A DNA stretch of 64,000 bases from Candidatus Binatota bacterium (GTDB lineage: Bacteria; Desulfobacterota; Binatia; UBA1149), in NCBI GenBank assembly GCA_012960245.1, contig DUBO01000051.1:60887-124886 (forward strand), in the 5' to 3' direction. A program made the position numbers and the translations under genes. Numbering within the stretch: the stretch's first letter is position 1; each line of letters starts with the position of its first letter. The notes under the pieces were generated by a model that did not search any database, was not told the DNA's origin, and worked only from the letters and a program-made list of their open reading frames with translations. Positions 1 through 58,776 of this stretch are shown one piece after another.

Positions 1-6
1 ACGGGC

Positions 7-3000
7 GTGATGATACGCCCGAACGATCCCGAGGGTGTGCACACGGTGCAGCGCGGTGCCGGTTGCTCCGTTGACGTCGGTGGCAATGTGATCAACAACT
101 GCAGCCCTGACGTCCGCTTTACCAACGATCCTTCCAACTACACCTTCAACCATCTAACGGGTGTACCCTGGTGCTTACCGAGTACCGTTGCTCGGGATTT
201 CACCGACGAGAACGGAAACGTAGTAACGGCTCAGTCCGACGTGTTTGGCGAGGGCGACGCTCTTTGCCCGGCCAGCAACAAGGACGACTTCGATCCCGCA
301 ACCACCAACTGGGTGGTCCCGGATTCGAGGCGCTTCGTGCCGTTGGCGGTGGGAGACCCCATAGGAGCAGATGGTAACTTCGAGACCGTTAACGGAGTAA
401 CGTTCTTCTCGGCCCACACCATAGTCATAGAGCTGTCCCCAACGACCCGGGATGACCCCAGCCAGCCCGACTACCTGCTGGTGGCTGAAGTCGGAGGCGA
501 CGTTTCTGGTTTTTCCAACGCACGCTTGAAGGGGATGGCCATAGGCATGGACAGTTTTGAGTCGCAGGTCGACGTGGCGGTGATCGACATCGATCCGGCG
601 ACCAACGAGGACAAGGCGCGCATTGTATTAAGCACGGTGGGTAATCCGCATACCGTTTGCATGGGAGTGAACCCGCTGCTGCCCCCCGGCGGCTTACCCG
701 GGGCCGTTCCCTGCTCCGTAGACAACGGCGGTAACATATTCAAGATCATTTTTGACGTTGATTTTGTTGTCGGGGTGGGCCCAAAACGTTCGTTTTGCAC
801 CAACCTGTTCAACGCCGGGCTGAGGGCCTCGGCAGTTTGCAGCCTGGGTGAGGAAGTCGCGACGTTCTTACCGATAACGCGCGAAATGATAATGGTCAGT
901 CGCCACCAGGCGGTTGTTAACGCAGCCGGCTCCGGCTCTCTCAACATAAACGGAAATCCGGCCGTCCACGGTGAGTATCTGTCGCCGCAAGGCGTAGGTC
1001 ATCCCGAGTTCGACGAAGTGACTTTGACTAGTGTAGGCACTGCCTTTCAGTTTGACGGTATTCCCTGGAACCTCGACCGGCGCCTGGGCCCGGGTGGCTG
1101 CGTGGACACCGACGGCGACGACGAGGTCGATTGCGAGAGCCTGGTTGACTTTCCGGTGGGTAGCTTTGGCCTGGATCCTTTTCCTTGGGATCCGTTGGAT
1201 CCCAGGGTGCGTGGTCCCCGCCTGGACGGCGACAATGTTGACTTACCGCTGGGGAGTGCACACCGCGTTCTGAGTCACTGGCCCCACAGTCCCGGCGCGG
1301 CCGCGGTGGTCGACGCCCAGGGGAATGTAATAACTCCAGCGATTGCGCCCGACCAGATTCCGTGGCCGCCTGCAACGGCTGCAGGACAAGAAGGGGGAGT
1401 TCTCGACTGTAGTGACGGTGACCCCTGCACGGTTGATTCCTGCGATGAGCATGAAGGCTGCTCGCATGTGCCCTCGACGGGTGACAATTGCGACGACGGA
1501 GACGCCTGCACATTGGGCGACGTCTGTAACGCCGGTGTGTGTGAATCCGGATCGCTTGATTGCACCGATAACACTTGCACGGCCACGTGCGACGACGGCA
1601 ACGACTGCACGGACGACGGTTGTGCTGCCGGTGCCTGCACGACGACCAACAACGTGGTGCTTTGCGACGATGGAGATGAGTGCACGACGGGCGACAGCTG
1701 CAACGGCGCCGGTGTTTGCACGGGAGGCGTTCCGCCGATCTGTGACGACGGCGATCCCTGCACGGCCGACAGCTGCGATTCGCTGCTCGGATGCGTTGAT
1801 TCCTTCGCGGCAAGCGGCACCTCCTGCGATGACGGCGACGCTTGCACGAGCAATGACCAGTGCGACGGGCTTGGTGACTGCCAGGGGGGCGGGGCTACCG
1901 GCTGCGACGATAGCAATCCCTGCACCGACGATTTCTGTAACTCCGCGGGAGGTTGCTTGAATGTATCCAACTCCGCGCAATGCTCAGACGGCGACGCGTG
2001 CACGGTGGACGACCTGTGTTTAGGCGGACTGTGTGTTTCCGGAGCCACGGACGACTGTGACGATGGTGACATCTGTACGGTTGATAGTTGCGATGCGGTT
2101 GGCGGTTGCGCCAACACTTTCGCTGGCGGGGCTTGCGACGATAACAACCCCTGCACCGACGATGTGTGCGACGCTTTAGGCGGTTGCGTGAGTACGGCCA
2201 ACGCGGCTTCTTGCGACGACGGTGACCCTTGCACTACTGGAGATAGTTGCCAGGCGGGCGCCTGCGTTGGCGGAGGTCCGACCGACTGCAGTGACGACAA
2301 CGTCTGCACCGACGACAGTTGCGGCGTGGGTGGCTGTGTACACACTGCCAACGTTGCCGCTTGTGACGACGGCAACGACTGCAACACGACCGACTTGTGC
2401 ACCAATGGGGTATGCGTTGGTAGCGGCACCCCGAATTGCGATGATTTGAACCTGTGTACTTTCGATTCCTGCGACCCGATCTTGGGTTGTACCAACGATC
2501 CCAACACGTCGGCCTGCGACGACGGCGACGCCTGCACGGAGAACGATACTTGCGCTAACAGCGGATGCTCGGGCTCGGTGGTTGCGCCTGCCTGCGGCAA
2601 CGGTTGCATAGAAGCCACAGAGACCTGCGGCGAGCCCGACATGGTGGGCTGCGTTTTGGGCGAGACTTGTGGCGCTGCGTGTACCTGCGAGGCCCAGAAC
2701 TGTGCCGTCCTGTTGATGACCGGCCCGCCGGCCCTGCCAGCTGCCGGCCAGCCGCTGGTGCTCTTCGTGAAGCTCAACGTAGGGACGATCCCCTTGGGTA
2801 GCTATGCTGTAGACCTGTCCTGGGATCCGGTTGTGTTGCAGCTCGACTCGGTAGCGGGTGGCAGTAATGCGCAATTCGGTGGAGCGCCTACCTGCAACAT
2901 AAACAACGCGGCCGGCACGGCCAGCTGTGTTGGTTTGAACGCCTCGGCGCTGAACCTCCCGTTTGGCGAGGTGCAAGTGGCTAACCTCAACATGACCGTT

Positions 3001-6000
3001 GTAGACGCGTCGGCCGGCGAGGCCACCGTGTCGGTGACCGCGGGCGTGATGAGCGATACCGCGGGCGACCCGCTTCCGGCTTGCAACGCGAGTGCTGACC
3101 TGACCGTGCTTAGTGGTTGCGGCGACGTTAACGGTGACAGCAACGTCAACATTGTCGATGCCCTGCTCACGGCCCAGTTCCAGGTCGGGCTGCGAACATG
3201 CAGCCAGATGGCCCGCTACGACGCCTGCGACATCTCGCCTGCGCCCACCGGCGACGGCTCATGTAACATTGCCGACGCGTTGAGGATGGCCCAGTGCAGT
3301 GTTGGCTTGATATCCTGCGACTTCGTCTGTTCGCCCCTGGTGTGCTCTGAACCAGCGGGCGCCATGATGATAGACCTCGGCGGCGAGACCGCGGATCTTC
3401 ACCTGCCCAGCGGGCAGGCGGAGGTCAGCATCTCGCTGCCCGGGGGTACCCCGAGCCCCGGGCAGGTGATAACAGGCGAGCTGGTCATCGACACCGGCTC
3501 GTCCCTGGGTGCGTACGGGATCGACATAATCTGCGATCCCGCACTCATGAGGATCGTGCCTCCGGTGGCGGGGGGCACCACGGGGGAGTTTTCGGGCTCG
3601 CCCGTGCAGAACGTTTCGGGCTGCAGCGCCAGCCTGAGTGGCTTCCAGTTCTCTAACCTCGCCGGTCCCAGCGGACTTGTGAGCGTGGCCAGCGTGCAGT
3701 TCGAAGTCCTGGCCTCGGCCACCCCGGGCGGCACCAGCCTGGTTGACCTGGCTACCACAGTGATGGTGGATACTAGCGGAAACCCTATTTTAGCCACCGA
3801 TCTTGATAGCACGGTAACTATCGGTGGCGGCTGCGGAAACGGAACACTTGAACTCGGCGAGCAGTGCGACGACGACAACAATGTCAACGGCGATTGCTGC
3901 TCGGCCTCCTGTAACTTCGAAGTCGGATCATGCTTCGACGGCGACTCCTGCACCACCGGCGATACCTGCCAATCAGGTTCCTGCGTGGCTGGAGCAACCC
4001 TTGATTGCGACGACAATAATCTTTGTACCGACGATAGCTGTGATTCTTTGAGCGGCTGCGTGAACGTGGCCAACACGGTTTCCTGCGACGATGGCGATGC
4101 CTGCACCGAGAGCGACGTGTGCTCGGGTGGAAGCTGCCAGTCCGGCGCGGCGGCCGACTGTAGCGACGGTAATATCTGCACCGTTGACTCCTGCAACTCT
4201 GCTTCAGGCTGCCAGAATCAGCCTTCTAACGCGGCCTGCGACGATGAAAATGCTTGCACCGACGACAGCTGCGCGGCCAATGCCTGCAGCAGCACGCCCA
4301 ACTCGGCCTCCTGTGACGACGGTGACGCTTGCACCACTACTGACACCTGCGCGGCGGGTAGCTGCTCGGGTTCGGCCGTAGACTGCGACGACGCCAACTT
4401 GTGCACTACCGATTCCTGTGATGCTGCCAGCGGTTGTGCGTACGCGGCCAACTCGCTCGCCTGCGACGACGGGGTCAACTGTACCACCGGCGATACCTGC
4501 TCTGCTGGAATCTGCCAGGCTGGTGCTCCGGTAGTCTGTAACGACGGTGACGTCTGTACCGACGACCAGTGCAACGAGGCCGACGGAACCTGCTCCAGTT
4601 TTGCTAACACGGGGCCAGCCTGCGATGACGGCGATGCCTGCACCACGGGCGACGCCTGCTTCGGCGGCAACTGTGTGGGTGGCGCGGCGCCGGACTGCGG
4701 CGACGGCAACGTTTGCACTGATGACGTTTGTAACTCGGCCAGCGGTTGCTCCAACCCGGCCAACACGGTTGCCTGCAACGACGGTGACGCCTGCACCACC
4801 GCTGACACCTGTTCTGCGGGTTCCTGCGTGGGCGGAGCGGCTCCCGATTGCAACGACAGTGATCTTTGCACTGCCGACAGCTGCGACTCGGGCTCGGGCT
4901 GCGTGAACACGGATATATCGGCTGACTGTGGCGACGCTAACGTCTGCACTACCGACAGCTGCGATGCGATCCAGGGTTGCATAAACGCGCCCAACACGGT
5001 GGCTTGTGACGACGGTGATGCCTGCACACAGGTAGACAGCTGCGATGGCGCTGGCGCCTGCGCTGGATCTGACCCGGTGCTGTGTACGGCCAGTGACCAG
5101 TGCCACGACGCGGGCAGCTGTGCCCCGGCCAGTGGCCAGTGCAGTGACCCTGCTTCGGCTGACGGTACGCCCTGTGATGATGGCAACGCCTGCACGACCA
5201 ACGACAGCTGCCAGTCCGGCACCTGTGTCGGCGGCGCGGCACCGAACTGTGACGACACTAACGTCTGCACTACCGACAGCTGCGATGCAGCCAGCGGTTG
5301 CCAGCACGTGCCGGTGGCGCTGTCTTGCGATGACGGCGATGCGTGCACGGTTGCCGATTCGTGCAGCGGCGGCGTCTGCTCGGGTACGACTCGTGATTGC
5401 AACGACAGCAACGGCTGCACAAACGACAGTTGCGATCCGGCCTCGGGTTGCGCCAGCGTTGACAACACAGCGCCATGTGATGACGGAAACGCCTGCACCA
5501 CGAGTGACACCTGCGCCGGTAGTTTCTGCGTTGGTGGAGTAGCTCCTGAATGCAACGACGGCAATGGTTGCACCACCGACAGTTGCGACACAGCGTCGGG
5601 CTGCCTTTACTTGGATAACTCGCTCGCCTGTGATGACGGTAACGCCTGCACGGACAACGACAGCTGCTCAAGTGGGCAGTGCCAGGGCGGCGGAGCTGCG
5701 AACTGCGACGACTCCAACTCTTGCACGGTTGATCTGTGCGACTCGGCTACCGGTTGCCAGCACTTCAACGTAGCCATCGCGTGCGATGACGGCAACGCCT
5801 GCACGACCGACGACCAGTGCAGTAGCGGTGCTTGCGTAGGCGGCGCCCCGCCCAACTGCAACGATTCAAACGTTTGCACTGACGATAGCTGCGATGCCGG
5901 CCTGGGCTGCGTAAACACAAACAACACGGCCCAGTGCTCAGACGGCGACGCTTGCACCACCAGCGATATCTGTTCGGCTGGCAATTGCGGCGGTACCGAC

Positions 6001-6996
6001 ACGTCGGCGAGCGATTGTGATGACAGTAATGTGTGCACCACTGACAGCTGCAACGCGGTTTCTGGTTGCGCCAACGTGGTCAACGCGGTGGCTTGCGACG
6101 ACGGAGACACTTGCACGACGGTTGATCTCTGTGTCGATGGAGCCTGCGTGGGTACGGTTCCGCCCGATTGCGACGACACCAACGGTTGCACGGACGATAC
6201 CTGTGACAGTGCTACCGGTTGCGTGAGCACCGACAACACGGCCTCCTGCGAGGACGGCAACGCCTGCACAAGGGACGATACCTGCCAGGCGGGATCCTGT
6301 GTGGGCGGTGCGGCGCCCGACTGCGACGACGATAACGAGTGCACGGAGGATACCTGTGACGCTGCCTCGGGCTGCGCGCACGGTAACAACACCAGTAGTT
6401 GCGACGACGGCGATTCCACCTCGGTGGGTGACCAGTGCTTAGCGGGCAGCTGCGTGTCGGGTAACTTCGGCTGCCCGGCAGCCCCGGCGCCCGACTGCAC
6501 CCAGCCTTACTTCGAGCGTAAGTCCAAGCTGCTGCTTAAGAACAACAGCCTGGACAGCAAGGACAAGTTGCTCTGGAAATGGGCCAAAGGTGGTGCCACG
6601 ACCACGGCAGATATGGGCGACCCATCGGCCACTACCGAGCACGCACTGTGCATCTGGGACGAGGTAGGCGGTACGCCCGCCCTGGTCATGGAAAACCACG
6701 TCCTGCCGGGCAACGGTTGGCAAGTATCGGCTTCGGGCATTCAGTACAAGGACCGCGTAGGCGCTCCGGACGGCGTGGCTAAGCTGAAGATGAAGGCCGG
6801 GCCCGACGGCAAGGCCAAGATCCTGATCAAGGCCAAGGGCGCCGCCACGGGTCTTGCGGCCATGCCGCTGTCGCTGGACGACAAGCTTACAGTGCAGTTG
6901 GTGAACAACTCGGGCGGATGCTGGCAGTCGGATTTCGCTGCGCCGACCTCGCGTAATAACCCGGCATTGTTCAAGGGAATTTCTTCCTTCAGGTGA
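7..6996 (+). CDS. Giant secreted modular protein, probably 5'-truncated at the window edge. It has an unknown N-domain, CTDC-type Cys-rich repeat block 1, cohesin-like domain 1, a dockerin-like module, cohesin-like domain 2, CTDC repeat block 2 (about 35 units), and a conserved ~170-aa C-terminal domain shared with the next gene.
   Basis: The 2329-aa ORF is open to nt 1 (GTG at 7, no upstream stop, no signal peptide), so it is likely partial. Tandem 24-25-aa repeats of the form CDDGxACTxxDxC...GC fit the Dictyostelium CTDC (PF00526-like) spacing. One unit at ~3826 is CGNGxxExGEQCDDDNNVNGDCC, which is myxo disulfide-repeat-like. A DVNGDSNVNIVDALL dockerin Ca-loop lies at 3124. LSWDPVVLQLDSVAGG and GIDIICDPALMRIVPPVAGG are cohesin-like beta-sandwich motifs. 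The C-terminal KLLWKWAKG...CWQSDF block aligns with the C-terminus of the 7263..12509 protein. Confidence 0.8.
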   Translation: MMIRPNDPEGVHTVQRGAGCSVDVGGNVINNCSPDVRFTNDPSNYTFNHLTGVPWCLPSTVARDFTDENGNVVTAQSDVFGEGDALCPASNKDDFDPATTNWVVPDSRRFVPLAVGDPIGADGNFETVNGVTFFSAHTIVIELSPTTRDDPSQPDYLLVAEVGGDVSGFSNARLKGMAIGMDSFESQVDVAVIDIDPATNEDKARIVLSTVGNPHTVCMGVNPLLPPGGLPGAVPCSVDNGGNIFKIIFDVDFVVGVGPKRSFCTNLFNAGLRASAVCSLGEEVATFLPITREMIMVSRHQAVVNAAGSGSLNINGNPAVHGEYLSPQGVGHPEFDEVTLTSVGTAFQFDGIPWNLDRRLGPGGCVDTDGDDEVDCESLVDFPVGSFGLDPFPWDPLDPRVRGPRLDGDNVDLPLGSAHRVLSHWPHSPGAAAVVDAQGNVITPAIAPDQIPWPPATAAGQEGGVLDCSDGDPCTVDSCDEHEGCSHVPSTGDNCDDGDACTLGDVCNAGVCESGSLDCTDNTCTATCDDGNDCTDDGCAAGACTTTNNVVLCDDGDECTTGDSCNGAGVCTGGVPPICDDGDPCTADSCDSLLGCVDSFAASGTSCDDGDACTSNDQCDGLGDCQGGGATGCDDSNPCTDDFCNSAGGCLNVSNSAQCSDGDACTVDDLCLGGLCVSGATDDCDDGDICTVDSCDAVGGCANTFAGGACDDNNPCTDDVCDALGGCVSTANAASCDDGDPCTTGDSCQAGACVGGGPTDCSDDNVCTDDSCGVGGCVHTANVAACDDGNDCNTTDLCTNGVCVGSGTPNCDDLNLCTFDSCDPILGCTNDPNTSACDDGDACTENDTCANSGCSGSVVAPACGNGCIEATETCGEPDMVGCVLGETCGAACTCEAQNCAVLLMTGPPALPAAGQPLVLFVKLNVGTIPLGSYAVDLSWDPVVLQLDSVAGGSNAQFGGAPTCNINNAAGTASCVGLNASALNLPFGEVQVANLNMTVVDASAGEATVSVTAGVMSDTAGDPLPACNASADLTVLSGCGDVNGDSNVNIVDALLTAQFQVGLRTCSQMARYDACDISPAPTGDGSCNIADALRMAQCSVGLISCDFVCSPLVCSEPAGAMMIDLGGETADLHLPSGQAEVSISLPGGTPSPGQVITGELVIDTGSSLGAYGIDIICDPALMRIVPPVAGGTTGEFSGSPVQNVSGCSASLSGFQFSNLAGPSGLVSVASVQFEVLASATPGGTSLVDLATTVMVDTSGNPILATDLDSTVTIGGGCGNGTLELGEQCDDDNNVNGDCCSASCNFEVGSCFDGDSCTTGDTCQSGSCVAGATLDCDDNNLCTDDSCDSLSGCVNVANTVSCDDGDACTESDVCSGGSCQSGAAADCSDGNICTVDSCNSASGCQNQPSNAACDDENACTDDSCAANACSSTPNSASCDDGDACTTTDTCAAGSCSGSAVDCDDANLCTTDSCDAASGCAYAANSLACDDGVNCTTGDTCSAGICQAGAPVVCNDGDVCTDDQCNEADGTCSSFANTGPACDDGDACTTGDACFGGNCVGGAAPDCGDGNVCTDDVCNSASGCSNPANTVACNDGDACTTADTCSAGSCVGGAAPDCNDSDLCTADSCDSGSGCVNTDISADCGDANVCTTDSCDAIQGCINAPNTVACDDGDACTQVDSCDGAGACAGSDPVLCTASDQCHDAGSCAPASGQCSDPASADGTPCDDGNACTTNDSCQSGTCVGGAAPNCDDTNVCTTDSCDAASGCQHVPVALSCDDGDACTVADSCSGGVCSGTTRDCNDSNGCTNDSCDPASGCASVDNTAPCDDGNACTTSDTCAGSFCVGGVAPECNDGNGCTTDSCDTASGCLYLDNSLACDDGNACTDNDSCSSGQCQGGGAANCDDSNSCTVDLCDSATGCQHFNVAIACDDGNACTTDDQCSSGACVGGAPPNCNDSNVCTDDSCDAGLGCVNTNNTAQCSDGDACTTSDICSAGNCGGTDTSASDCDDSNVCTTDSCNAVSGCANVVNAVACDDGDTCTTVDLCVDGACVGTVPPDCDDTNGCTDDTCDSATGCVSTDNTASCEDGNACTRDDTCQAGSCVGGAAPDCDDDNECTEDTCDAASGCAHGNNTSSCDDGDSTSVGDQCLAGSCVSGNFGCPAAPAPDCTQPYFERKSKLLLKNNSLDSKDKLLWKWAKGGATTTADMGDPSATTEHALCIWDEVGGTPALVMENHVLPGNGWQVSASGIQYKDRVGAPDGVAKLKMKAGPDGKAKILIKAKGAATGLAAMPLSLDDKLTVQLVNNSGGCWQSDFAAPTSRNNPALFKGISSFR
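1400..2575 (+). repeat. CTDC-type Cys-rich coding tandem repeat block 1 (about 15 units of ~72-75 nt) inside the giant protein gene
   Basis: Read directly from the translation: a repeating CxDGDxCTxxDxC / CDDxNxCTxDSCDxxxGC pattern. Confidence 0.8.
3826..6475 (+). repeat. CTDC-type Cys-rich coding tandem repeat block 2 (about 35 units, organised as a ~150-nt super-repeat of two alternating subtypes)
   Basis: The motif ...CDDGDACTTxDTCxAGSCVGGAAPDCDDxNxCTTDSCDAASGC... is reiterated with highly similar nucleotide sequence. Confidence 0.85.
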
Positions 6997-7262: not shown

Positions 7263-10200
7263 ATGTTTGTATTCTCGGTTGTTACTAACGGTTTCTTTTC
7301 TCGTGCTGCTGTCTCGACAGCAGCCCTGGCCCTTATTCTCGGCTCGGCCGCTACGGCATTCTCACAGCCGGCACCGCCGCCTGCAGGTGAACCGTTGTTT
7401 GCCCCTCCACCGTCGTCGCTCAAGACGGCACTGGTTCCCGAACCGTCGACGCTCGCCGAGTACGTTGTCGACAAGCAGGCCGCCATCACCCTGGGGAAGG
7501 CCCTTTTCTGGGACATGCAGGTGGGCAGTGACGGGGTGCAGGCCTGCGCTTCCTGCCACTTCAGCGCGGGCGCCGACAGCCGCGATAAAAACACCGTTAG
7601 CCCAGGCCCCAACGGGGTGTTTGACAGCCTGGGGCCCAACGGGACGCTGACCGCTGCCGACTTTCCATTTACGAGTTTTGCCGACAACGACAACCGCCTC
7701 TCGACTCGTATTCACTCTGACGATGTCGTCGGTTCGCAGGGCGTTCACAAGGTCGATTTCCTTGACGTAGTGCTCGGTAGTCCCCTGGCCTTCGACCAGG
7801 GAACCGTGCTGCTCGACCCCACCTTCCAGGTTGGCGGGGTAAACACCCGGCAGTCAACCGGCCGCAACACCCCGTCGACCATTAACGCGGTATTCAACTG
7901 GCGTAACTTTTGGGACGGTCGTGCCCAGCCGCTCTTCAACGGTGTCAACCCCGGTGGCGCACACGATCCGTCAGCCCGCGTGATCGAAATACTCGCTGGT
8001 AGCGACGGTGTCCTCGGTACCCTAGACGACACCGTAGAGGCGGTGTCGGTGCTCATAGACAACGCCAGTCTTGCTTCGCAGGCGGTGGGTCCTCCCAACA
8101 GCGAAGTAGAGATGGCCTGGGCTGGGCGTATTTTTCCCAAGATAGGTAAGAAGATGCTTGCGCCCGGAATCATTCCGCTGGCCAAACAGCTGGTTCACTC
8201 CAGTGATAGCGTGCTGGGCGCGCTGGCCAAGACCAACACCAACCCCAACCTTCCGGGCCTCGATGCGAGCTACGAGACGCTCATACAGCAGGCTTTTGCG
8301 CCCCAGTGGTGGGATTCGGACAAGGTCGTGACTTTTCCCGGGACGGTTGCCTGTGGCGACACGCTCGGCATCGATGCCTCCACCTGCGCGGGCTTCCCGA
8401 CCATTTCTGATCCCACCGGTGCGCTGCTGACAACGAATGAGTACACGTTGATGGAGGCCAACTTTTCGCTTTTCTGGGGACTGGCTGTGCAGTTATACGA
8501 GGCCACCCTGGTATCGGACGACTCGCGTTTTGACCAATTCATGGACGGCGGCGGCATAGGCGGCAACACCGAGCACCTGCTCAACGCCGAGGAGAGGTTG
8601 GGCCTGGATGTTTTTCGCAACATCGGCTTCGCGCCGGGCGTCAGCGCCGGGCTCTGCGTAGGTTGCCACGTGGGCGCGGAGATGACGGCCGCGGCTACCG
8701 CTGCCATCAACTCGCTGGAGCCTTTTTTCCCGGGTGAACCGCCTCCCGTGCCCGAGTTACCGGTCGAGCAGATGCTCATGGCCTTCGGCGTGGGGCTCAA
8801 CAATCTGAACTTCCAGACAGATCCGCTGGCCATACTGACGCCCGAGTTTGCCGGGGTTCTGACCTTTGACCCGCGAGGATCGTTGATGCAGATCACACAG
8901 GACTCGGTGCCCACCGGCGCCTGCAACCTGGACGGGAGCTGCCCCAATGTCACCACAGCCGGTTTCGACGGAGTGCCGGGTACCGGTGACGACGGCAGTG
9001 TTCCCCAGCATTGCACCTGCAACAATTTTGACACAGCGACCCAGACCTGTGTTTCCGAGGGATGTGCGCCGGCCATTTTTACCCGCGACTACCTCGGTAC
9101 CCCCGGCCAGACCCAGCTGGGTGCGACCCCCCCCGCCGACTGCGGCGTGGGGTCGACCCTGAGCGCCCAGCTGTTTCCTACCGGCGCCGGTTCGCTCGTA
9201 AACCCCTTGTCGTTCGCCAGCGCGCTGTTCGTGCAGCAGCCTGACTGCGCGGCCGACCTGTCGACCGGTACGCTCGGCCTCGCGCCGGGCGACTACAGCT
9301 TTTTTGTAGACGGCATAAACCGCGGCACCATGCGCGTGATTGCCGACGTGATCTATGACTTCGGCTTCTACAACATTGCAGTGACCCCGACCTTCGACGA
9401 CGTGGGCGTGGGTGGCGATTCGCCTCCAGGTCAGCCGATATCGGTTGCCAGGCGCGCGGTCATGATGGCCGACGGAGAGCCTTGCGGCCAGGACCCCATT
9501 AACAACCCGCTGGTCTGCGACATGCCCGAACTCACGGGCGCGTTCTGCCTGCCCGGTGTGAGTGGCAACTGCACCATCCAGGATCCGTCGTTCGTGGCGC
9601 CCGGCACTCTCGAAGTGGTTGACGGTGCCTTCAAGGTGCCCCAGCTGCGCAACGTGGAACTGACTGGTCCGTACTTTCACAACGGTGGCAAGGGCACCCT
9701 CGGCCAGGTCGTTGATTTCTACAACCGTGGAGGCGACTTCCACGAGGACAACCTTCTGGAACTGGCACCGGAGATAATCTTTCTTGCCATGCCCCAGGTT
9801 GACCGCGACGCGTTGGTGGCCTTTCTCAAGACGCTCACCGACGAAAGGGTGCGCTACGAGGCAGCTCCCTTTGACCATCCGGAAATTTCGATACCCGTTG
9901 GCCAGGTTGGTGATGACCTCGCCGTGAGCGACACCAACTTTGACGGTAACGCTGACGATGTCTTCATGCACCTGGCAGCCGTTGGCGCACCGGGTAACTG
10001 CACGGGCGTAGACGGCTCAGCTCGCAGCTGTGATGACAACAACTCGTGCACAGATGACAGCTGCGTGCCCGAGTTCGGTTGCGTGAACGCACCCAATACA
10101 GCGCTCTGTAATGATGGTGACTCCTGCACCACGGCCGACCAGTGTGATGGAGCCGGCGGTTGTGCGGGCGTAGACACATCGCTGGTCGATTGTGACGACG

Positions 10201-12509
10201 CGGACGTGTGTACCGATGACAGTTGCGATGCGTTTGCCGGTTGCACGAACAGCTTCAATGCGTCCGGCTGTAGCGACGGCAACGCCTGTACCACGGGTGA
10301 TACCTGCAACGCGGGTATCTGCGTTGGTGGACCGCCACCGGCTTGTGACGACGGCAACGTTTGTACCGCAGATCTTTGCGATAGCAGCGTGGGCTGCGTG
10401 TCGTTGCCTACGTCGGTGAGTTGTGACGACGCGGATCCTTGCACGATCGATGACTTCTGCGTCAACGCTGCCTGCGTGGGCTCCACGCCCCCGGACTGCA
10501 GCGACGGCAATGTCTGCACGGACGACAGTTGCGTGAGCGCGGCCGGTGGCTGTGTGAACCTGCCCAACTCGGCGCCCTGCGATGATGGCGATGCCTGCAC
10601 GACCAACGACACCTGCCAAGCCGGTGTCTGCGTGGGTGGCGCGGCGCCCGACTGCGACGATGTCAACGGTTGCACCGACGACACTTGTGACAGTGCAATC
10701 GGCTGCGTAAGCGCAAACAACACGGTGTCTTGTGAGGACGGCGAGTTTTGCACCGACGGCGACCAGTGTTCGGGTGGCTCCTGCCAGCCGGGTGCGGCCA
10801 GGGATTGCTCGGATGGCAACGCCTGCACGACAGACAGCTGCGATGACGCTGCCAACCAGTGCCAGCACGTGGCCGACGATGGCTTCTGCGATGACAGTAA
10901 CCCCTGCACGAACGATTTCTGTTCGACGGCAACGGGCTGCTTCTACCAGGATAACGGCTTTGCCTGCGACGACGGGGACGCCTGCACGACCATCGACACC
11001 TGCCAGGCCAGTGTGTGTGTGGGTAGCACGCCGCCCAACTGCGACGATGGAAACGGTTGCACCGACGACGTCTGCGACAGCGCGACGGGCTGTGCGAACA
11101 ATGACAACACTGCCCTTTGCAGCGACGGCGACGCCTGTACTACCGGCGATGCCTGCTCGGCGGGCAGCTGCTTTGGCGGCGCCGCGCCTGATTGCGACGA
11201 CGGTAACGTGTGCACGGCCGACACCTGCGACACAGCCCTGGGTTGTCAAAATACCAACGTAGCTGTCGCCTGCGACGACGGCGACGCCTGCACCACGACC
11301 GATACTTGCTCGGCCGGCGGTTGCGTGGGGGGTGCTGCCCCTGATTGTAACGACGCCAACGGCTGTACCGATGACGTCTGCAATAGCGCGACGGGTTGTT
11401 CCAATACTGACAACACCACGGCCTGTGACGATGGTGACGCTTGCACAACCGGTGATATTTGCGCGGCTGGTTCGTGTGCCGGTGTAGATACTTCGGCCCA
11501 GGATTGCGAAGACGGAAATTCCTGCACGCTGGACTTCTGCAACCCTGCGAGCGGTTGCGTGAACGCTGCTACGGCTGGTAGTTGCGACGACGGCGACGCC
11601 TGCACGGATGACGACCAATGTATCAACGGGTCCTGCTTAGGCGGAGGCGCGCATGATTGTGATGACGCCAACGGTTGCACCGACGACAGTTGCGACAGCG
11701 CGACTGGTTGTGCCAACAGCGACAACACGGCCGCCTGCGACGATGGCGACGCCTGCACCACGGCTGATACCTGTGCGGCGGGTAGCTGCGTGGGCGGGGT
11801 CGCGCCGGATTGCGACGATGGCAACGGTTGCACCGACGACACCTGCGACAGCACGAGTGGCTGCGCTTACTCTAACAACACAGCCACTTGCGATGACGGC
11901 GAACCGCTCACCCCGGTAGACCAGTGCATCGCCGGCCAGTGCGTGGGCAGTGGATTGCAGTGCCCCGTACAACCAGTGGCGGGTTGCCGACAGCCGGTCA
12001 AAATTGGCAAGGCCAGGCTGGCGCTCAAAAAGAATGCTGTGGTGACGGCCAAGGACCGCATGAAGTGGAAGTGGGCCAACGGGTCTGCCACCGCGGCCGC
12101 CGACTTTGGTGACCTCGTTGGTGGTAGCGGTGAAGGTCTCGCCATTTGCTTCTACGATGAAGTTGCCGGCCAGGCCTCGCTTGTGATGGACCAGCTGGTG
12201 CCCGCGGGTGGCAGCTGCGGCGGCAAGGATTGTTGGGTAGAAACACCCAGGGTCATTAAGTTCAATGATCGATCGGGCGCAGCCAGCGACGGGATAACGG
12301 CATTAACTATCAAGCCCGGCGCCGACGGCAAGGCCAAGATCAAGGTCAAAGGCTCTGGTACGCGACTGGGAGTGGGTTCGCTGCCCCTGTCGATGGACAC
12401 CAAGGCTACCATGCAGGTCATAGCCGAGCCTGGTAGTTGCTGGCAGGCCGATTACTCGTCAGCTGCCAAGAACACCGACGGGCAGTTCAAGGCCAAGAGT
12501 TCGAATTGA
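7263..12509 (+). CDS. Secreted di-heme cytochrome c peroxidase (CCP/MauG family) domain with large insertions, fused to CTDC-type Cys-rich repeats (about 10000-11930) and the shared C-terminal domain (about 11957-12509)
   Basis: A GGAGG RBS sits 8 nt upstream and the N-terminus looks like a signal peptide. Heme motif 1 ([23 protein letters not shown]) is at 7545-7559. Heme motif 2 (GLCVGCH) is at 8655-8669. The CCP signature [31 protein letters not shown] is at ~9640-9730. These are followed by ~25 CDDGxACT-type repeats. The C-terminal KWKWANG...CWQADY block is homologous to the C-terminus of the upstream gene. Confidence 0.85.
   Translation: [1748 protein letters not shown]
10000..11935 (+). 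repeat. CTDC-type Cys-rich coding tandem repeats in the peroxidase fusion gene
   Basis: Same repeat family as 1400-2575 and 3826-6475; some units are near-identical at the nucleotide level. Confidence 0.8.
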
Positions 12510-13042
12510 TGTCGAGTCTCCGGCTTGAAGAATATGCGAAGAAAGCCCTGCTCGGGGTAGCGGTAGCCATGATTTTGGCGGCTATCGCGACCCCTGGCCT
12601 GGCTGTCGCCTCCTCATCCGACTTGGACAAGTGCAAGTTAGCCATCGCGAAAGCCGACTCCAAGTACGTGGGCAAGTACACCAAGGCCTCGCGACGGTGC
12701 ATGGACGACGGGGGCTCTGCTTCTGCCTGTATGGGTAGTACTGGCGGTGACGCTCGCTTTGTGGCCGCAGTGGGCAAGGCTCAGTCGCGGGCGAACAAGC
12801 TGGTCCTGAAAAAATGCTCCGCCTGGGGGGCCGCTGAAAAGGTTCGCTACGACCTCGGCTACGGTTCCAGCTGCCCAGGCATCGCCCAGCCCGGTAACTG
12901 TGATTTCGAACTTTCGGGGCTCGATATGCAGGGGGAAGACAATGACCTGCTCGAGTGCCTGGGGTGTCTTCATTCTCACATGGCCGAATGTTTGACTGCT
13001 GCTGCCTACAATATCGCCGTGCCTGGAGGTCGTTGTTTCTGA
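12509..13042 (+). CDS. Small secreted Cys-containing domain protein (177 aa), paralogous to the N-terminal domain of the downstream multicopper-oxidase fusion
   Basis: The ATG overlaps the TGA stop of the peroxidase gene (TGATG), which implies translational coupling. There is a signal peptide (MSSLRLEEYAKKALLGVAVAMILAAIATPGLAVA). The conserved pattern KC..RC..SC..KCS..DLGY.S.CPG....CDF..G.D..GE.ND.L.CL.C matches residues ~50-170 of the 13068 protein. Confidence 0.6.
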   Translation: MSSLRLEEYAKKALLGVAVAMILAAIATPGLAVASSSDLDKCKLAIAKADSKYVGKYTKASRRCMDDGGSASACMGSTGGDARFVAAVGKAQSRANKLVLKKCSAWGAAEKVRYDLGYGSSCPGIAQPGNCDFELSGLDMQGEDNDLLECLGCLHSHMAECLTAAAYNIAVPGGRCF

Positions 13043-13067
13043 CCAGCAGAAGCAGCCGAAGTCCGCG

Positions 13068-16000
13068 ATGAACAATTCTCAACCATTTTATCTACCGGTC
13101 TTCAAGACGATTCGGACAGCGCTGTTATGTTCGGTGTTGATGCTGCTTGTTCCCTTGACGGCAGTGGGCGCCGAGCAACAGCAGGCAGGGGATAGATTTC
13201 CTTCTAATCCGCTAGGAGCCTGCAGCACCAAGCTTGCTGCAGGAGGAGACAAGCTGTTCAAAAAGGCGGCCAGGGCACTGCAAAGATGCCAGAAGGCCGA
13301 CATGTCGACCTCGTGTCTACTCAACAGGCCGGCGAGCGTAGCGGGCGAGCTGTCGGGCTACGCGACCAAGGCACGACGTTCGATGGCGGGCAAGTGTTCG
13401 CGTATTAATTATGATTTGGCTGGATACCCTTCCACCTGTCCGGGTTTCGGAGACGCTTGTGATTTTACCGTGGCTGGCTGGGATGTCACCGGCGAAAAGA
13501 ACGACATGCTTGACTGCCTGCTTTGCATGTACGACGCAGCAGCGAGGCGGAGCCTTGAACTGCAGGTCGTGGTACCGCGTTGCGGCGACGGCATGGACAA
13601 CAGGCTCGACGAAATTTGCGATGACGGTAACGATGACAGTAACGACGCCTGCCTCGGAGACTGCCGCGCGGCGAGCTGTGGTGACGGTTTTGTCTGGGCC
13701 GGCCAGGAGAGCTGCGACAACGGTGACGCTAACTCCGATACAGAGGCAGATGCCTGTCGCAGCGATTGCACCCCTGCGGTCTGCGGTGATGGGACGGTAG
13801 ACAGCGGCGAAGAATGCGATGACTCGGGTGAATCGGCCAGCTGCGACAGCGATTGCAGCCTGGCTGTCTGCGGTGACGGTACCGTAAATGCCTCGGCCGG
13901 CGAGACTTGTGACGACACGGGTGAATCGGCTAGCTGCAACAGCGACTGTACGGTGGCCTCCTGCGGTGACGGCACGACTAATGGCACGGCCGGCGAATCC
14001 TGTGATGACGGCAACGGGGATAACACCGACGCCTGTCTCAACGATTGTTCCCCAGCCTCCTGCGGTGACGGTTTCACATGGGCGGGCTCAGAAGACTGCG
14101 ACGACGGGAATGCCGACAACAATGATTCCTGCCTGGACAGTTGCACAGCGGCGACTTGCGGCGATGGTTTTGCCTGGGCGGGCACCGAAGAATGCGACGA
14201 CGGCAACGCCGACAACGGTGACTCCTGCCTGGATAGTTGCGTCACCGCGACCTGTGGCGACGGCTTTTTATTCTCGGGCAGCGAGCAGTGCGACGACGGA
14301 GCGGCCAACTCTGATACCGCGCCCGACACTTGCCGCTCTGATTGCGAACTGCCGAGCTGTGGTGACGGGGTAGCCGACAGTGCGGAGCAATGTGATGATG
14401 GTAACGCCGACGACAACGACTCCTGCCTCGGCTCCTGTGTCGATGCGTCCTGCGGCGACGGTCATACCTGGGCTGGAATAGAAGCTTGCGATGCGGCTGG
14501 CTATAGCGCTTCGTGCAACCTGGACTGCAGCGTCTCGGTGTGCGGTGACGGCAAGGCCAACCCGGCGGCGGGTGAGGCCTGCGACGCGGCGGGCGAGAGC
14601 GCGGTTTGTGACCTCGATTGTAGTCTTGCGTCCTGCGGTGATGGAACGATGAACACGACGGCAGGCGAGGCTTGCGACGCGGCGGGTGAGAGCACAACTT
14701 GTGATCTCGACTGCAGCCTTGCCTCCTGCGGTGACGGAACAACGAACGCCACGGCAGGCGAGACCTGCGACACGGAAGGCGAAAGCGCCTCCTGTAACGC
14801 CGACTGCAGTACTGCCGCCTGTGGTGACGGCAAGGTCAACAGCAGCGCGGGCGAACAGTGCGATGCGGCGGGAGAATCTGATTTATGCGACGGCGATTGC
14901 ACGGTGGCTGCCTGTGGCGACGGCACCACTAACGCTACTGCCGGCGAGGCCTGCGACGACGGTAACAACAGCAACGGCGATGGCTGTCTCGATAGCTGTG
15001 CCACGGCCAGCTGCGGCGATGGCTTCGTCTTCGCGGGCGAAGAAGCCTGCGACGATGGCAACTCTTCAAACGCTGATGCCTGCCTGGCTGATTGTGCGGT
15101 TGCGAGCTGCGGCGATGGCTTTGTCTTCGTCGGCCAGGAAGCCTGCGATGACGGCAATTCCGACAACGGTGACGCTTGCCTCGACAGCTGCGAGACGGCG
15201 TCCTGCGGCGACGGTTTTCTGTTCGTCGGCGGGGAAGAGTGCGACGATGGCAACAGCAGCGACACCGACTCCTGTAGCGCGGCCTGTGATTCACAACGCG
15301 TAATTTCAGCCGGCGTGGTAGCGCTGGACCAGGTGCTTACCTACAACCGCTGGGGTAGCCACCAGGCTGCGGGGATGATTTTTGCGCTCCGGCGCGACGT
15401 GGTCGACATGGCCGGTAACCCAATAGGGGAGGGCGGAGTGCCAGGCCAGGTAATGCTCAGGCCAGGCAAGCGCCCGCGCCCGCTGGTGCTCAGGGCCAAC
15501 GAGGGGGATGTTCTGCAGGTCCACTTTACAAACCTGCTGGCACCGGCCAGGCCCAACGCCAAGGGAACGACCACGAGGCTGGCTTCGATGATGGTAAACG
15601 GCACGCGTGTGCTGGGCAACACCCACGACCCGGTCGTGACCGGGCTCGAGGGAATCGCACCGGGGCAGTCTACCGACTACTCGTGGAAGGCCGGGCACGA
15701 GGGCACAAAGTTGTTCTACAGCCTCGCCGGACCGGCTGGCGGTGGTGGCGACGGTGGCCAGCTTTCGCTCGGACTTTTCGGAGCTTTAAACGTCGAGCCC
15801 GAGGGCAGCAGCTGGTATCGCAGCCAGGTGACAGCGGCAGAGTTGGCGACGGCGCGGTCCCAGGCCGAAGCACCTGCGCTGCTTAACTACGACGCGGTAG
15901 ACATTGCAGGAGTGCCGGTGCTGCGCATGCTCGACGACGCCGGTGAACTTGTGCACTCTGATCTCAACGCGATCATCGCCTACGACCAAGCAGCAGATAA

Positions 16001-19000
16001 CGTGCAGTCGACCTCCGAGGCCACTTTCAGGGAGTTCTCGGTAATCTTTCACGACGAGATCGAGCTGACCCAGGGATACCCCCAACTTGATAACGATGTA
16101 CTCAAGCCGGTGAGCGATTCTTTTGCCATCAATTACGGCTCCGAGGGCCTGGGCTCGCGCCTGCTGGCCAACCGCCTGGGCGAGGGGCCGGCTGCGAACT
16201 GCCTGGAGTGCCCCTACGAAGAGTTCTTCCTCGAGTCAGCCGTGAGCGGTGACCCGGCCCTGCTGAATGTTTTCGAGGATGATCCCTCCAACGTTCACCA
16301 CAGCTATATCAACGACAACGTAAAATTCCGCAACCTGCACGCGGGCCCGAGAGAAACGCATATCTTTCACCTGCACGCTCACCAGTGGCTGGCCAACGCG
16401 GGTGAGGGTATCGACGACAACTCGGTATACCTTGATTCGCAGGCAATAAGCCCGATGAGTAATTTCACCTACGAGATCCAGTACGGTGGCGCGGGCAACC
16501 GCAACAAGGTCGTCGGTGATTCAATTTTTCACTGCCATCTCTATCCCCACTTTGCCCAGGGCATGTGGGAGCTGTGGAGAGCACACGATGTACTGGAGGA
16601 TGGAACCCGTCGCCTGATGGACGGAGAACTGGGACCGGGAACAAACCCGCTCACCGGGGTGACGGTTGGCGGCACGCCCATACCCGCGCTTGTTCCAATG
16701 CCCGACTACGCGATGGCCCCCGATCCCAGCTACGGGCCGAACGCATTGCCCGGGTATCCTTTCTACATGGCGCAGGTCGCGGGCCACCGGGCTCCACAAG
16801 CACCGCTTGACGTGGCCAGCGACGGCGGACTGCCGCGACACGTGTTTACTGACGGCGGCCAGCGAAGCACGGGTGCGGGGGCTGCCAGTTTTGATTTCCA
16901 CGTCGACGTGCAGGTCGCCAACATACAGGTGCTGCCCCAGGAGGGAACGGCGCTTGAGCAGGCCGCGATGGCTTTTCACGCCAGCCCCGGTGTGACTACC
17001 ACCACCCCCGAGGGTGACGCAGCTTTCTTTGAACTGAACGGCTTGCCTTCCACCGCCGGTGCCCCTTACGCTGAGCCCTGTCCGCCCCTATGCGGCAGCG
17101 CCCAGCAGGGCGAGTACCAAGCAGCTTGCATGGACGGCTGCACGGGCAAACCCTGGGATCCCGAGTGCTCATTGCGTTGTGAAGACTGCACCACGGCCCA
17201 CCGCACCTACCACGTGTCGTACATAGAGCTCGACCTGTTGGCCAACGCGGCCGGCTGGCACGACCCACAGGGGCGCATAAACGTGCTCGACTCAGACGTT
17301 TCTCTCTACGAGGGACAAACGACCACGGCGGATCCGTTTTTCTTCAGGGCTAACTCGGGTGAGTGCGTCACGTTCAAGCACACCAACCGCGCGCCCAAGG
17401 AGTTTGACCTGGATGATTTCCAGGTGAGGACGCCCGCTGATGTGGTTGGCCAGCACATCCACCTTGTCAAGTTCGATGTGACAAGCTCCGATGGCTCGGG
17501 CAACGGGTGGAACTACGAAGACGGTACTTACTCTGCTGAAGCCATCGCCGAATGGACGGCGGCCAGCAATGCTCTCGGTGGGTCGGCCACCTCGGGATAC
17601 GACGCGGCGGGCAACCCCGTCAACGTGTGGGGCGACGGCGCAACCTCGGGGGTGCCCACGACGCTGACGGCCGACGGTGGCTTTCAGACCACCACGCAGA
17701 GGTGGTGGGCAGACCCCTTGCTCAATAAGCATGGCCAGGACCGCAGCATAAGAACGGTGTTTACCCACGATCACTTTTTTCCGTCTACCGGCCAGCAGCA
17801 CGGTTTTTACAACGCGCTCACCATAGAACCTGCCGGTTCGCAGTGGCTCACGCCCGACCTGACCGATGATCTTTCGCTGCCGCTCGACCCCGCCCGCGGT
17901 GTGGGTACGCAGGCATACATAATTGCCGCGGACAGCAAGACCTGCACGGTGAGCGGGGAGGCGGTAGCCGTTGAACCGTTGCCCTGCAACTCGGACGCCG
18001 ACTGCCCTGAAGAAGAATGGTGCATGAATATGGACCACCGTGAGTTCATGATGGCGGTGGCCGATCTTGCACTTCTTTATACGCCCCTGGGTGTGCCCAT
18101 AGGCGCGCCGGCCCAGCCAGAGGCCATATCGAGTAAGGGTGGAACAGACGTAGTAAACTACCGTAACGAACCTTTTGCCGGACGCGGCGGCCCTCATCCC
18201 GATGCCGATTTGGATACGCTGAACTCGGGTAACGGCGTACCTTCCGGCGCGTTCAGCTCCTGGGTAAACGGCGACCCCTTTACCGAGATATTCAAGGCCC
18301 GCGAGGGCGAACGAATGCAGGTGCGGCTTATACAGGGCGCACAACAGGCCCAGCACAGCTTCAACCTTCACGGCGGGTTGTGGCCCGAGGCCATAGACGA
18401 CTCTGGGTCCCCGATGGTTCAGGGCCAACCCATAGGTATATCCGAACACTTCGAGTGCGACATGGGCGTGGCTCCGCCGGTGACCGGCGGCGGCGTGGCC
18501 GATTACCTGTACCATTTCGGCGCCAATGATCATTTGAACGACGGAAGCTGGGGTCTCATTCGCGTGTTTGCTGACGGGCTTTCTTTTGATGCCAGCGACT
18601 CTGAACTCAGGTCGGCGCAACTGGCCGCCGCGGCTGCCGGCGAGCGCAACGACTGCCTTGAGGATTCACCCGCGCGCTTGTTCGAGGTCGAAGCCTGGCG
18701 GGCCGCCGACCTGCTGCCCGGCGGCCGGCTGGTGTACAACCAGCGCGAGGACATTTACGACCCCAACGCGCGTATCTTCTTGCTGGCCGAGGACCGGGCC
18801 GCACTGGCGGCGGGTACCAAGGCCGTCGAGCCGCTCGTGCTCAGGGCCAACTCCGGCGACTGCATCACGGTGTCGTTGACTAACCACATGCCAGACACCG
18901 AGGTATCGATGCATCCGCAGCGCGTGTCCTACGACGTACGCTATTCTGACGGTGCCAACGTGGGCTTGAACTTTCTCCAGACCGCTATGCCCGGTGAGAC

Positions 19001-22381: not shown

Positions 22382-23043
22382 AATGCTCGAGCTCTAAAAC
22401 TTCGACGATTAGTTTCGCAACGGTGAGCGTGACGGCCCTGGTGTGCTTTCTGCTGCTCGGTGTAACCCGTTCCGCCGCGGCCGCCGCCGCCGAGACTCAA
22501 GCTACTACCACCCCCGTTTCTGTCACTGCCGCCCGCGACGGAGACGAGGCCGCGCGAAGCTGGTTCACCGAATCCATCTTGCTTGACCAACGCGGTCGAG
22601 AGCTGAAGTTCTACAGCGATGTTCTCAAGGACCAGGTAGTGGTCGTCAACTTCATCTTTACCCGTTGCCCCGGCACTTGCCCGGTGCAGACGGCCAAGAT
22701 GTCGGAACTCTACAAGGAACTCGGTGGAGAAATGGGGCGGACGGTGCGCTTCGTATCGATTTCGGTAGACCCCGACAACGACACACCGGCGAAGTTGCTT
22801 GAATTTGCAGACCGCTACAAGGCTGGTGACGGCTGGTTTTTTCTTACGGGTGAGCAAAAAAGTCTCGACCAGGTAACGCGCAGGCTCGGTGCTCACAATA
22901 GTCTTGCCGAGGCGCACTCGCCCTTGTTCCTGCTCGGAAATGTCAGCCGCGAACACTGGGTCAAAATGCGCCCGAGCGCTTCGGTGGCAACGCTGGCGGG
23001 TGAAGTACGAAAACTGCTCGCGGTCGATAAAGAAGATGGCTGA
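22378..23043 (+). CDS. Second SCO1/SenC family copper chaperone paralog
   Basis: Internal ATG at 22378 (MKCSSS..., signal-like TM segment) overlapping the upstream stop (ATGA). VVVNFIFTRCPGTCP...FVSISVDPDNDTPAKL...GWFFLTG. Confidence 0.8.
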   Translation: MKCSSSKTSTISFATVSVTALVCFLLLGVTRSAAAAAAETQATTTPVSVTAARDGDEAARSWFTESILLDQRGRELKFYSDVLKDQVVVVNFIFTRCPGTCPVQTAKMSELYKELGGEMGRTVRFVSISVDPDNDTPAKLLEFADRYKAGDGWFFLTGEQKSLDQVTRRLGAHNSLAEAHSPLFLLGNVSREHWVKMRPSASVATLAGEVRKLLAVDKEDG

Positions 23044-42915: not shown

Positions 42916-42941
42916 CGTCGGTTTACCCGGCCGCCCCTTAG

Positions 42942-43943: not shown

Positions 43944-43944
43944 T

Positions 43945-45258: not shown

Positions 45259-45366
45259 CAAGCGGTTCTCCGGTACGAGCAGGGTCGGGCCGCGAGCTAT
45301 CGCGCGGCCTTGCAGAAAGCCCACCACCGCCCGGGGGGCAGCTGCGGGCGCCAACGGGGTTGGCTG

Positions 45367-53831: not shown

Positions 53832-53840
53832 GGAGGCGGG

Positions 53841-55049: not shown

Positions 55050-55067
55050 GGAATACGGAAACCGGCG

Positions 55068-56260: not shown

Positions 56261-56261
<1 letters not shown>
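55068..56261 (+). CDS. cpaE: CpaE/TadZ pilus assembly ATPase-like protein (receiver-like N-domain plus MinD/ParA fold)
   Basis: [22 protein letters not shown] deviant Walker A. Confidence 0.8.
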
Positions 56262-57801
<1,540 letters not shown>

Positions 57802-57820
<19 letters not shown>

Positions 57821-58767: not shown

Positions 58768-58776
58768 GGGCAGCGC

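Follow-up and report, generated by a model that had tools for sequence, protein, structure and literature searches.

An undescribed domain family, usually C-terminal, on predicted surface and secreted proteins of Binatota

In its working, the domain described here most resembles the C-terminal domain of the type IX secretion system of Bacteroidota (T9SS CTD; Por_Secre_tail, PF18962/TIGR04183) and the non-covalent retention modules or carbohydrate-binding modules (CBMs) of exoenzymes, and it is a member of none of these groups. We analyzed it in a 64,000-nucleotide stretch of a Candidatus Binatota metagenome-assembled genome (MAG; assembly GCA_012960245.1, contig DUBO01000051.1, positions 60,887 to 124,886 of the forward strand; hereafter called the “window”), in which two genes, the open reading frames (ORFs) ORF1 and ORF2, encode giant proteins that both end in a copy of the domain.

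The T9SS CTD has about 70–100 residues and seven strands. It shares several properties with the Binatota domain: both are folded all-beta units at the extreme C-terminus of unrelated Sec-exported proteins, and both are restricted to one lineage, with dozens of carriers per genome. In contrast, the Binatota domain has 175–183 residues, 11–12 strands and two to three disulfides, which places it outside the T9SS CTD in size and fold, and it also occurs in N-terminal, internal, tandem and stand-alone forms. Neither copy matched the hidden Markov models (HMMs) of the T9SS families (PF18962, TIGR04183 and TIGR04131), and none of these models recurs among 75 full-length relatives.

The tripartite signals, such as PEP-CTERM, MYXO-CTERM, LPXTG and GlyGly-CTERM, combine a signature motif, a transmembrane helix and an arginine cluster within about 20–40 residues (10.1101/2023.06.07.544157). 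Similar to the Binatota domain, they form the C-termini of varied surface proteins and occur many times in one genome, and some N-terminal families are common to both (TSP3/MtsC-like and HAF repeats). However, with its 175 residues the Binatota domain is globular and hydrophilic, and it lacks the motif–helix–basic cluster arrangement. Neither copy contains a hydrophobic segment: the maximal Kyte-Doolittle hydropathy over 19 residues is 1.23 in copy 1 and 0.87 in copy 2 (family median, 1.04). The type V autotransporter barrel is C-terminal as well, but it is a Cys-poor, 12-stranded structure of about 250–300 residues with an aromatic last residue, while the Binatota domain has 175–183 residues and four to six conserved cysteines, is predicted to form a soluble sandwich, and ends in Arg, Asn or Asp. 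No autotransporter model in Pfam matched either copy.

The SLH, LysM and CBM modules resemble the Binatota domain in that they are autonomous, non-catalytic units attached to diverse exoenzymes through Pro/Thr linkers or repeats, at times duplicated in tandem and possible at either end of the protein. They have no sequence or structural similarity to it, and its C-terminal bias is much stronger than usual for CBMs. Neither its sequence nor its fold places it in a described CBM family; some members have linker-joined carbohydrate-active partners (GH5, GH2, CBM96 and Pro/Thr linkers), but most partners are not carbohydrate-active enzymes. The dockerin (PF00404) is a duplicated, calcium-binding, EF-hand-like helical module of about 60–70 residues, in contrast to the all-beta Binatota domain of 175–183 residues. 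The ML domains, which bind lipids or lipopolysaccharide (LPS), are disulfide-bonded all-beta sandwiches like the Binatota domain.

The common C-terminal domain of ORF1 and ORF2

The initial annotation of the window had claimed a common C-terminal domain in two giant proteins. This was confirmed, as all of the peptide pairs quoted for it are present, and a BLASTP alignment of the two copies has 72/183 identities (39%) at E 1e-41. Since composition-based statistics were used, this value indicates true homology, and not Lys-rich low complexity. The low-complexity artefact is also excluded by 31 near-invariant columns, the majority of which hold residues other than lysine. Neither of the two outcomes that the initial annotation had named as fatal to its claim, namely a match to a known family or a similarity of lysines only, was found. 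A family HMM built from 36 sequences detected copy 1 at E 1e-59 and copy 2 at E 3e-62, and revealed no further copy in the window when applied to all six frames.

The limits of the domain required small adjustments. Copy 1 had been placed correctly and in frame, while copy 2 had been started at 11957, one base too early (Table 1). The homologous region also exceeds the proposed extent of about 170 residues, as the homology between ORF1 and ORF2 continues for about 320 residues upstream, through Cys-rich repeats. The final ~500 residues of the two proteins are 54% identical when aligned, because the Cys-rich (Dicty_CTDC-type) repeats preceding the domain are also homologous. ORF1 and ORF2 share a “stalk plus end domain” unit, and the globular domain is its less conserved part.

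Copy 2 has the complete set of six conserved cysteines, while copy 1 has four. In copy 1, the C-x4-C hairpin, which is present in 98–99% of the family, is lost through a six-residue deletion. The simultaneous loss of both hairpin cysteines in one deletion indicates that these two pair with each other. The hairpin is also missing in a few other members, such as P0031. Copy 1 ends with ...KGISSFR, and copy 2 with ...KAKSSN. The two copies are 39–42% identical, as compared to a median of 38% to random family members; a recent duplication or gene conversion between the ORF1 and ORF2 domains was thus rejected, as the distance between the copies is as large as that to the rest of the family.

Next, we searched for known relatives. 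Neither copy matched any family in Pfam-A (a search repeated at E<=10) or NCBIfam, and in the 75 full-length relatives the domain region is covered by no Pfam or NCBIfam family. No PDB chain was detected at E<=10 with profiles of either 2 or 36 sequences. The structure prediction that the initial annotation had suggested yielded confident AlphaFold2 (AF2) models from a 65-sequence alignment: copy 1 is all-beta (pLDDT 95.5, pTM 0.91), and copy 2 has 12 strands (pLDDT 96.7, pTM 0.91). Both models have the identical order of 11–12 beta-strands plus one short helix, despite the hairpin loss in copy 1. Foldseek found no PDB match at E<=0.001 (TM at most 0.37), and none among viral structure models. 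A description of the domain was not found in the literature on Binatota, cysteine-rich repeats, Mn oxidases and MYXO-CTERM/choice-of-anchor proteins. The domain is therefore an undescribed family, without a curated-database model or a solved structure. Consistently, the assertion that it is not PEP-CTERM, T9SS CTD, LPXTG or an autotransporter stands, given the lack of a Pfam or NCBIfam match, a hydrophobic segment and a solved structural relative.

ORF1 is still open where it reaches the left edge of the window, without an intervening stop codon, and is therefore cut at its N-terminus; it belongs to the cluster of HIF64442.1 (2,534 residues) and HIL13232.1, and its full-length orthologue has 2,531–2,534 residues. 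The Cys density profile distinguishes a low-Cys head (residues 1–450), which matched nothing in Pfam or among the PDB sequences, from a first Cys-rich repeat block (residues ~450–900). The distal stalk contains about 8 Cys per 50 residues and matches Pfam Dicty_CTDC at E 3.5e-64 in 20 stretches. ORF2 has 1,748 residues and is identical in sequence to GenBank HIF64443.1, “cytochrome c peroxidase.” Its head also matches TIGR04039 and TIGR03791, both under the cut-off, and PDB di-haem peroxidases and MauG at E 1e-13 to 1e-7. The ORF2 stalk directly precedes copy 2 and aligns with the ORF1 stalk. Upstream of the domain, the cysteines number 229 in ORF1 (1-6468) and 118 in ORF2 (7263-11957).

Size, anatomy and distribution of the family

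With the two-copy profile, an exhaustive HMMER search among 1.84 billion representatives clustered at 50% identity detected 6,468 clusters at E<=1e-3; of these, 4,779 passed E<=1e-10, and 470 passed E<=1e-30. The profile search proposed in the initial annotation thus recovered thousands of relatives, and the domain, rather than being a peculiarity of two proteins, defines a family with at least 6,468 clusters at this identity. The source annotations of the relatives are only “hypothetical protein” or “cysteine-rich repeat protein.”

The consensus of 217 near-full-length domains is aC.a.P..GCR.P..agKa.L.LKD.spD.kD.L.WKW.KGaAT..ADFGDP..tTdYaLCvYDesgGtP.Lvl.A.vPAGGtCgGkPCWKat..GFkYkDk..tPDGv.kl.LKaG.dGKAKI.vKGKG..L.mPaLPL.qdp.VtVQL.ns.G.CWEAtYSApa.kNd...FKaKSD. 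The family signature, which spans about 175–185 residues, is C-x3-P-x3-C-[RK]-x-P ... L-x-W-K-W-x-K-G-x-A-T-x3-D-F-G-D-P ... Y-x-L-C-[VI]-Y-D ... G-G-x-C-x-G-K-P-C-W-K ... G-K-A-K-I-x-V-K-G-K-G ... L-P-L ... V-Q-L ... C-W-E-A-x-Y-S ... N-x4-F-K-x-K-S-D, and both copies conform to it, except for the C-x4-C of copy 1. The six cysteines are conserved at 98–100%, 18 columns are conserved as Lys/Arg and 8 as Asp/Glu, and several aromatic residues are conserved as well. The terminal motif ...N....FKxKSD is also conserved, and its last Asp is invariant where present. In one sub-family (P0037, P0051, P0091, P0134, P0136 and P0138), the domain ends with ...FKAKAGS, followed by a conserved extra tail, PSGAF[IL]D.T...LD.

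The domain lies within 12 residues of the C-terminus in 130/150 representatives (~87%), and nothing follows it in 113/150. At the level of genomic DNA, 110 of 127 complete copies read directly into the stop codon. In the other ~13% of the representatives, the domain is N-terminal, internal or tandem. For example, P0008 consists of a signal peptide, the domain, a Pro/Thr linker and then more Cys-rich domains, and in P0012, P0014, P0057 and P0083 the order is CBM96, Pro/Thr linker, domain, Pro/Thr linker and a further ~350 residues. P0005 and P0011 bear tandem pairs, and P0015 and P0017 consist of a signal peptide plus the domain. The 40 residues before the domain, compared in 147 proteins, are Cys-rich repeats in 49, Pro/Thr/Ser linkers in 26 and other sequences in 56, and were too short in 16.

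Pfam and NCBIfam scans of the 75 full-length relatives revealed very diverse N-terminal partners. Among them are DUF4215/TIGR02232 repeats, DUF5122/delta-60 propellers, BNR/sortilin, HAF repeats, TSP3 (MtsC-like) and beta-helix. Further examples are CBM96/DNRLRE, disintegrin, GH5, GH2, the F510_1955 glycosylhydrolase, an extracellular polyhydroxyalkanoate (PHA) depolymerase and a choice-of-anchor Q domain.

The charge of the domain contrasts with that of the regions preceding it. The family domains have a median pI of 8.9 and a net charge of +5, and their upstream regions have a median pI of 4.2. In the window, copy 1 (pI 9.05, net charge +5, 9.7% Lys) follows an ORF1 region (nt 1-6468) with a pI of 4.05, a net charge of −301 and 0.3% Lys, and copy 2 (pI 9.27, +8, 9.8% Lys) follows an ORF2 region (7263-11957) with a pI of 4.05, a net charge of −184 and 0.9% Lys. 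Lys accounts for 7.4% of the residues in the family domains, with a K/(K+R) ratio of 0.62, as compared to 0.9% and 0.20 in their upstream regions, and 2.3% and 0.24 in 20 other proteins of the window, which has a G+C content of 62%. The domain is Lys-rich against the compositional bias of the genome, and lysine is therefore selected for in it.

How is the family distributed? We scanned species genomes with a degenerate DNA pattern, W-K-W..G..T....[FL]-G.P(3-9)C.[YW]D, which catches ~35% of the members. At least 120 stretches matched, and the family HMM confirmed 120/120. Among the matches listed, these 120 stretches derive from 49 assemblies, each one a MAG. By a hand tally of the record titles, these 49 assemblies are labelled Candidatus Binatia (17), delta proteobacterium/Deltaproteobacteria (14), Myxococcales (7), Polyangiaceae including UTPRO1 (3), Thermodesulfobacteriota (1) and unclassified (2), and each of the remaining 5 appears with a single short contig, in a bin of another phylum. 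Binatota comprises seven orders, one of which is UTPRO1, and its 16S sequences are assigned to Myxococcota, Desulfobacterota or Deltaproteobacteria in other taxonomies (PMC8262859). Since Binatota sequences carry these labels elsewhere, the family is centred on Binatota, although it is possible that some members are truly Myxococcota. Single MAGs contain at least 8–11 copies. The domain was not detected in 72,556 plasmids or in 2.9 million viral contigs.

We then analyzed the neighbouring genes, by calling the ORFs in 8-kb pieces from 121 loci and clustering them by all-against-all BLASTP. The only neighbour that recurred in the 121 loci was the shadow ORF lying antisense to the domain-bearing genes. 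Three short members that may stand alone were found on long contigs, and their gene contexts have nothing in common. The initial annotation had suggested a co-occurring sortase or exporter-like gene; no such gene, and no other partner, was found beside the domain-bearing genes of the window or the other loci examined. Taken together, the domain is a large, lineage-restricted, autonomous, disulfide-bonded, polybasic all-beta module, usually C-terminal on unrelated secreted proteins. The finding of the initial annotation is real and had been understated: it is an undescribed family of C-terminal modules of surface or secreted proteins, with a putative function.

Candidate functions of the domain

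We tentatively propose that the domain is a non-catalytic retention or binding module, which would tether acidic exoproteins to an anionic polymer of the envelope or matrix. The initial annotation had offered a new anchoring, sorting or partner-binding module, and such a role fits the C-terminal bias, the diverse partners, the paralogues, the lineage and the charge. The support for retention, namely the strong charge contrast between the basic domain and its acidic passenger, the many paralogues per genome and the restriction to one lineage, is circumstantial.

The retention mechanism would operate as follows. The beta-sandwich would fold independently outside the cell, with three disulfides (two in copy 1) and a conserved, Lys-rich polybasic surface. 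First, the protein would be exported by the Sec pathway, consistent with the signal peptide visible in ORF2. Second, the disulfides would form in the periplasm, as suggested by the six near-invariant cysteines of the domain and the hundreds in the stalks. Third, the protein would cross the outer membrane by some route. Finally, the basic module would bind non-covalently to the LPS, capsule or exopolysaccharide (EPS) of the producer itself. The very acidic enzyme or adhesin “head” would thereby be held at the cell surface, and the Cys-rich repeats, where present, would serve as a rigid stalk. In the window, the module would tether the giant ORF1 protein and the di-haem peroxidase beside the MnxG-like multicopper oxidase.

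The domain folds confidently alone and occurs in varied positions, which is behaviour typical of binding modules. In addition, the same highly conserved module stands behind heads whose substrates are unrelated, which suggests a common, organism-specific ligand on the cell's own surface, rather than a substrate. Four observations weigh against retention. The domain charge of +5 to +8 is tiny beside the passenger charge of −184 to −301. None of the known domains that bind LPS, EPS or carbohydrates has a matching fold. A signal peptide is likely in ~70% of the complete family members, by a heuristic that is crude. Moreover, pure binding does not explain why the domain stops exactly at the stop codon in ~75–87% of cases, with a conserved ...F-K-x-K-S-D end.

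This strict ending keeps alive a second explanation, which we consider unlikely: the domain may be a folded C-terminal secretion or sorting signal, similar to the T9SS CTD, that is read by a dedicated Binatota translocon or sorting enzyme and maybe cleaved, with covalent anchoring. It would then be the recognition or anchoring signal of an undiscovered Binatota sorting pathway, functionally comparable to the T9SS CTD or exosortase systems and served by a translocon or processing enzyme of its own, and this proposal is just as improbable. The conserved ...N....FKxKSD terminus, the dozens of likely substrates per genome and the restriction to one lineage are consistent with such a signal. Furthermore, the delta-60, HAF, choice-of-anchor Q and MtsC-like TSP3 families, which are among the partners of the domain, bear C-terminal sorting signals in other phyla. 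However, in the ~13% of N-terminal, internal or tandem cases, the “terminal” motif precedes Pro/Thr linkers and more domains, and proteins composed of only a signal peptide and the domain exist. Because of these varied positions, and because no partner gene recurs in the 121 loci, we prefer retention or binding over a sorting signal; the domain is also about twice the size of the T9SS CTD and matches no such model. If the sorting pathway exists, then dozens of giant, disulfide-rich, acidic exoproteins per genome would be directed to the surface by it, including extracellular metal-oxidising enzymes.

Could the basic surface instead target the substrate? In a CBM-like role, the domain would bind an environmental anionic polysaccharide or a mineral surface, and not its own cell. 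The Pro/Thr/Ser-rich linkers before the domain, its placement in the binding-module slot behind GH5, GH2 and PHA depolymerase, its co-occurrence with CBM96, the tandem copies, the conserved basic surface and the conserved aromatics are all compatible with this role, which is nevertheless doubtful: the substrates of the heads are unrelated or are not carbohydrates (examples are the di-haem peroxidase, propellers, disintegrin and TSP3 repeats), neither the sequence nor the fold has any similarity to CBMs, and the lineage restriction fits a lineage-specific ligand better than a widespread environmental polymer.

Lastly, a dockerin-like or oligomerisation module that joins the giants into an extracellular multi-enzyme complex is very improbable, since the two adjacent copies resemble random family members as much as they resemble each other, the search for a conserved partner gene was negative in the 121 loci, the domain has no dockerin similarity, and ORF3 lacks the domain, even though two adjacent, co-directional genes beside a multicopper oxidase both carry it and weak cohesin and dockerin matches exist elsewhere in ORF1.

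The surrounding locus and the significance of the family

Table 1. Coordinates of the domain copies, their carrier proteins and other features of the window.
Feature	Position	Strand	Remarks
C-terminal domain, copy 1	6469..6996	+	last domain of ORF1; 175 aa + stop, in frame
C-terminal domain, copy 2	11958..12509	+	last domain of ORF2; 183 aa + stop
ORF1	1..6996	+	open at left window edge
ORF1 proximal part	1..3747	+	head, first repeat block, weak cohesin/dockerin region
ORF1 weak cohesin and dockerin matches	2737-3282	+	aa 913-1094
ORF1 distal stalk, ~900 aa of Cys-rich repeats	3748..6468	+	boundaries approximate; directly before copy 1
ORF2	7263..12509	+	1,748 aa
ORF2 Sec signal peptide, predicted (MFVFSVVTNGFFSRAAVSTAALALILGSAATAFS...)	7263..7364	+	read directly from the translation; cleavage site approximate
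ORF2 head, di-haem cytochrome c peroxidase/MauG/MbnH-like, with large insertions	7365..9962	+	Pfam CCP_MauG E 1.5e-18
ORF2 stalk, ~660 aa of Cys-rich repeats	9963..11957	+	Dicty_CTDC E 1.1e-39; Cys density; boundaries approximate
Small Cys-rich ORF	12509-13042	+	177 aa; probably GenBank HIF64444
ORF3	13068..19706	+	2,212 aa; third giant protein; = HIF64445.1
Beta-propeller/YtkA protein	19848-21746	+	redox cluster
Cytochrome c + periplasmic-binding protein	22889-24673	+	redox cluster
Trypsin-like protease with PPC domain	24877-26523	+	redox cluster
Radical SAM protein with DUF3641	36850-37854	-	
CzcA/AcrB-type RND efflux system + HlyD-type and OEP partners	39841-45354	-	
Tad/Flp pilus cluster	53049-59718	+	RcpC/CpaB, secretin, CpaE-like ATPase, CpaF, two more ORFs downstream
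Antisense shadow ORF	1275-2777	-	
Antisense shadow ORF	4218-5591	-	
Antisense shadow ORF	10017-11618	-	

The weak cohesin and dockerin matches of ORF1 adjoin each other between the two Cys-rich blocks. The cohesin match (aa 913-1020, E 8.7e-6) is just above the Pfam cut-off, and the dockerin type I match (aa 1039-1094, E 0.004) is below the cut-off. ORF3, the third giant, does not end in the domain, as judged with the family HMM in all six frames. Its layout is reversed, with the Cys-rich repeats (DUF4215/TIGR02232) at the N-terminus and an MnxG-like multicopper oxidase at the C-terminus. The oxidase matches NF041487 at E 1e-200, but with 669 bits against a cut-off of 3100.

Between ORF2 and ORF3 lies a small ORF with a signal peptide, 10 Cys and no Pfam match. 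Its ATG and the TGA stop codon of ORF2 overlap (TGATG), suggesting that the two are translationally coupled. The small protein shares 30% identity (E 2.6e-11) with the N-terminus of the ORF3 multicopper oxidase. The family of this ORF was found in only 6 of the 121 related loci, which excludes it as a general partner, and once lies directly downstream of a domain-bearing gene (L121). ORF2, this small ORF and ORF3 belong to a co-directional cluster of secreted redox proteins on the + strand, which extends from 7263 to 19706 and on to ~28487. With its giant di-haem peroxidase and MnxG-like oxidase, the cluster may serve to oxidise a metal (Mn?) outside the cell of this Binatota bacterium.

The shadow ORFs opposite the Cys-rich repeats reach ~500 aa in the window and 1,437 aa in related loci; they group with one another in BLAST comparisons, and might be mistaken for genes. 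The radical SAM, RND efflux and Tad/Flp genes appear to be ordinary housekeeping surroundings. The AcrB-like protein and UvrB are identical in sequence to HIF64462.1 and HIF64480.1, respectively, and the MAG is also labelled Deltaproteobacteria. A TonB-dependent receptor, an RND pump with its OEP and a Tad secretin, all encoded in the window, show that the host is a diderm.

Binatota is a globally distributed phylum without a cultured member, and the question at stake is how its many giant exoenzymes are displayed or retained. One undescribed module marks a large part of the predicted Binatota secretome and is among its hallmarks. The family HMM would annotate thousands of “hypothetical proteins,” and the module could be used to inventory the surface-exposed enzymes of metagenomes, among them the di-haem peroxidase beside the MnxG-like oxidase. 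Being small and predicted to fold well (AF2 pLDDT >95), the domain is also a convenient object for structural and binding work. Should it prove to be a sorting signal, a new pathway of secretion or anchoring would be indicated.

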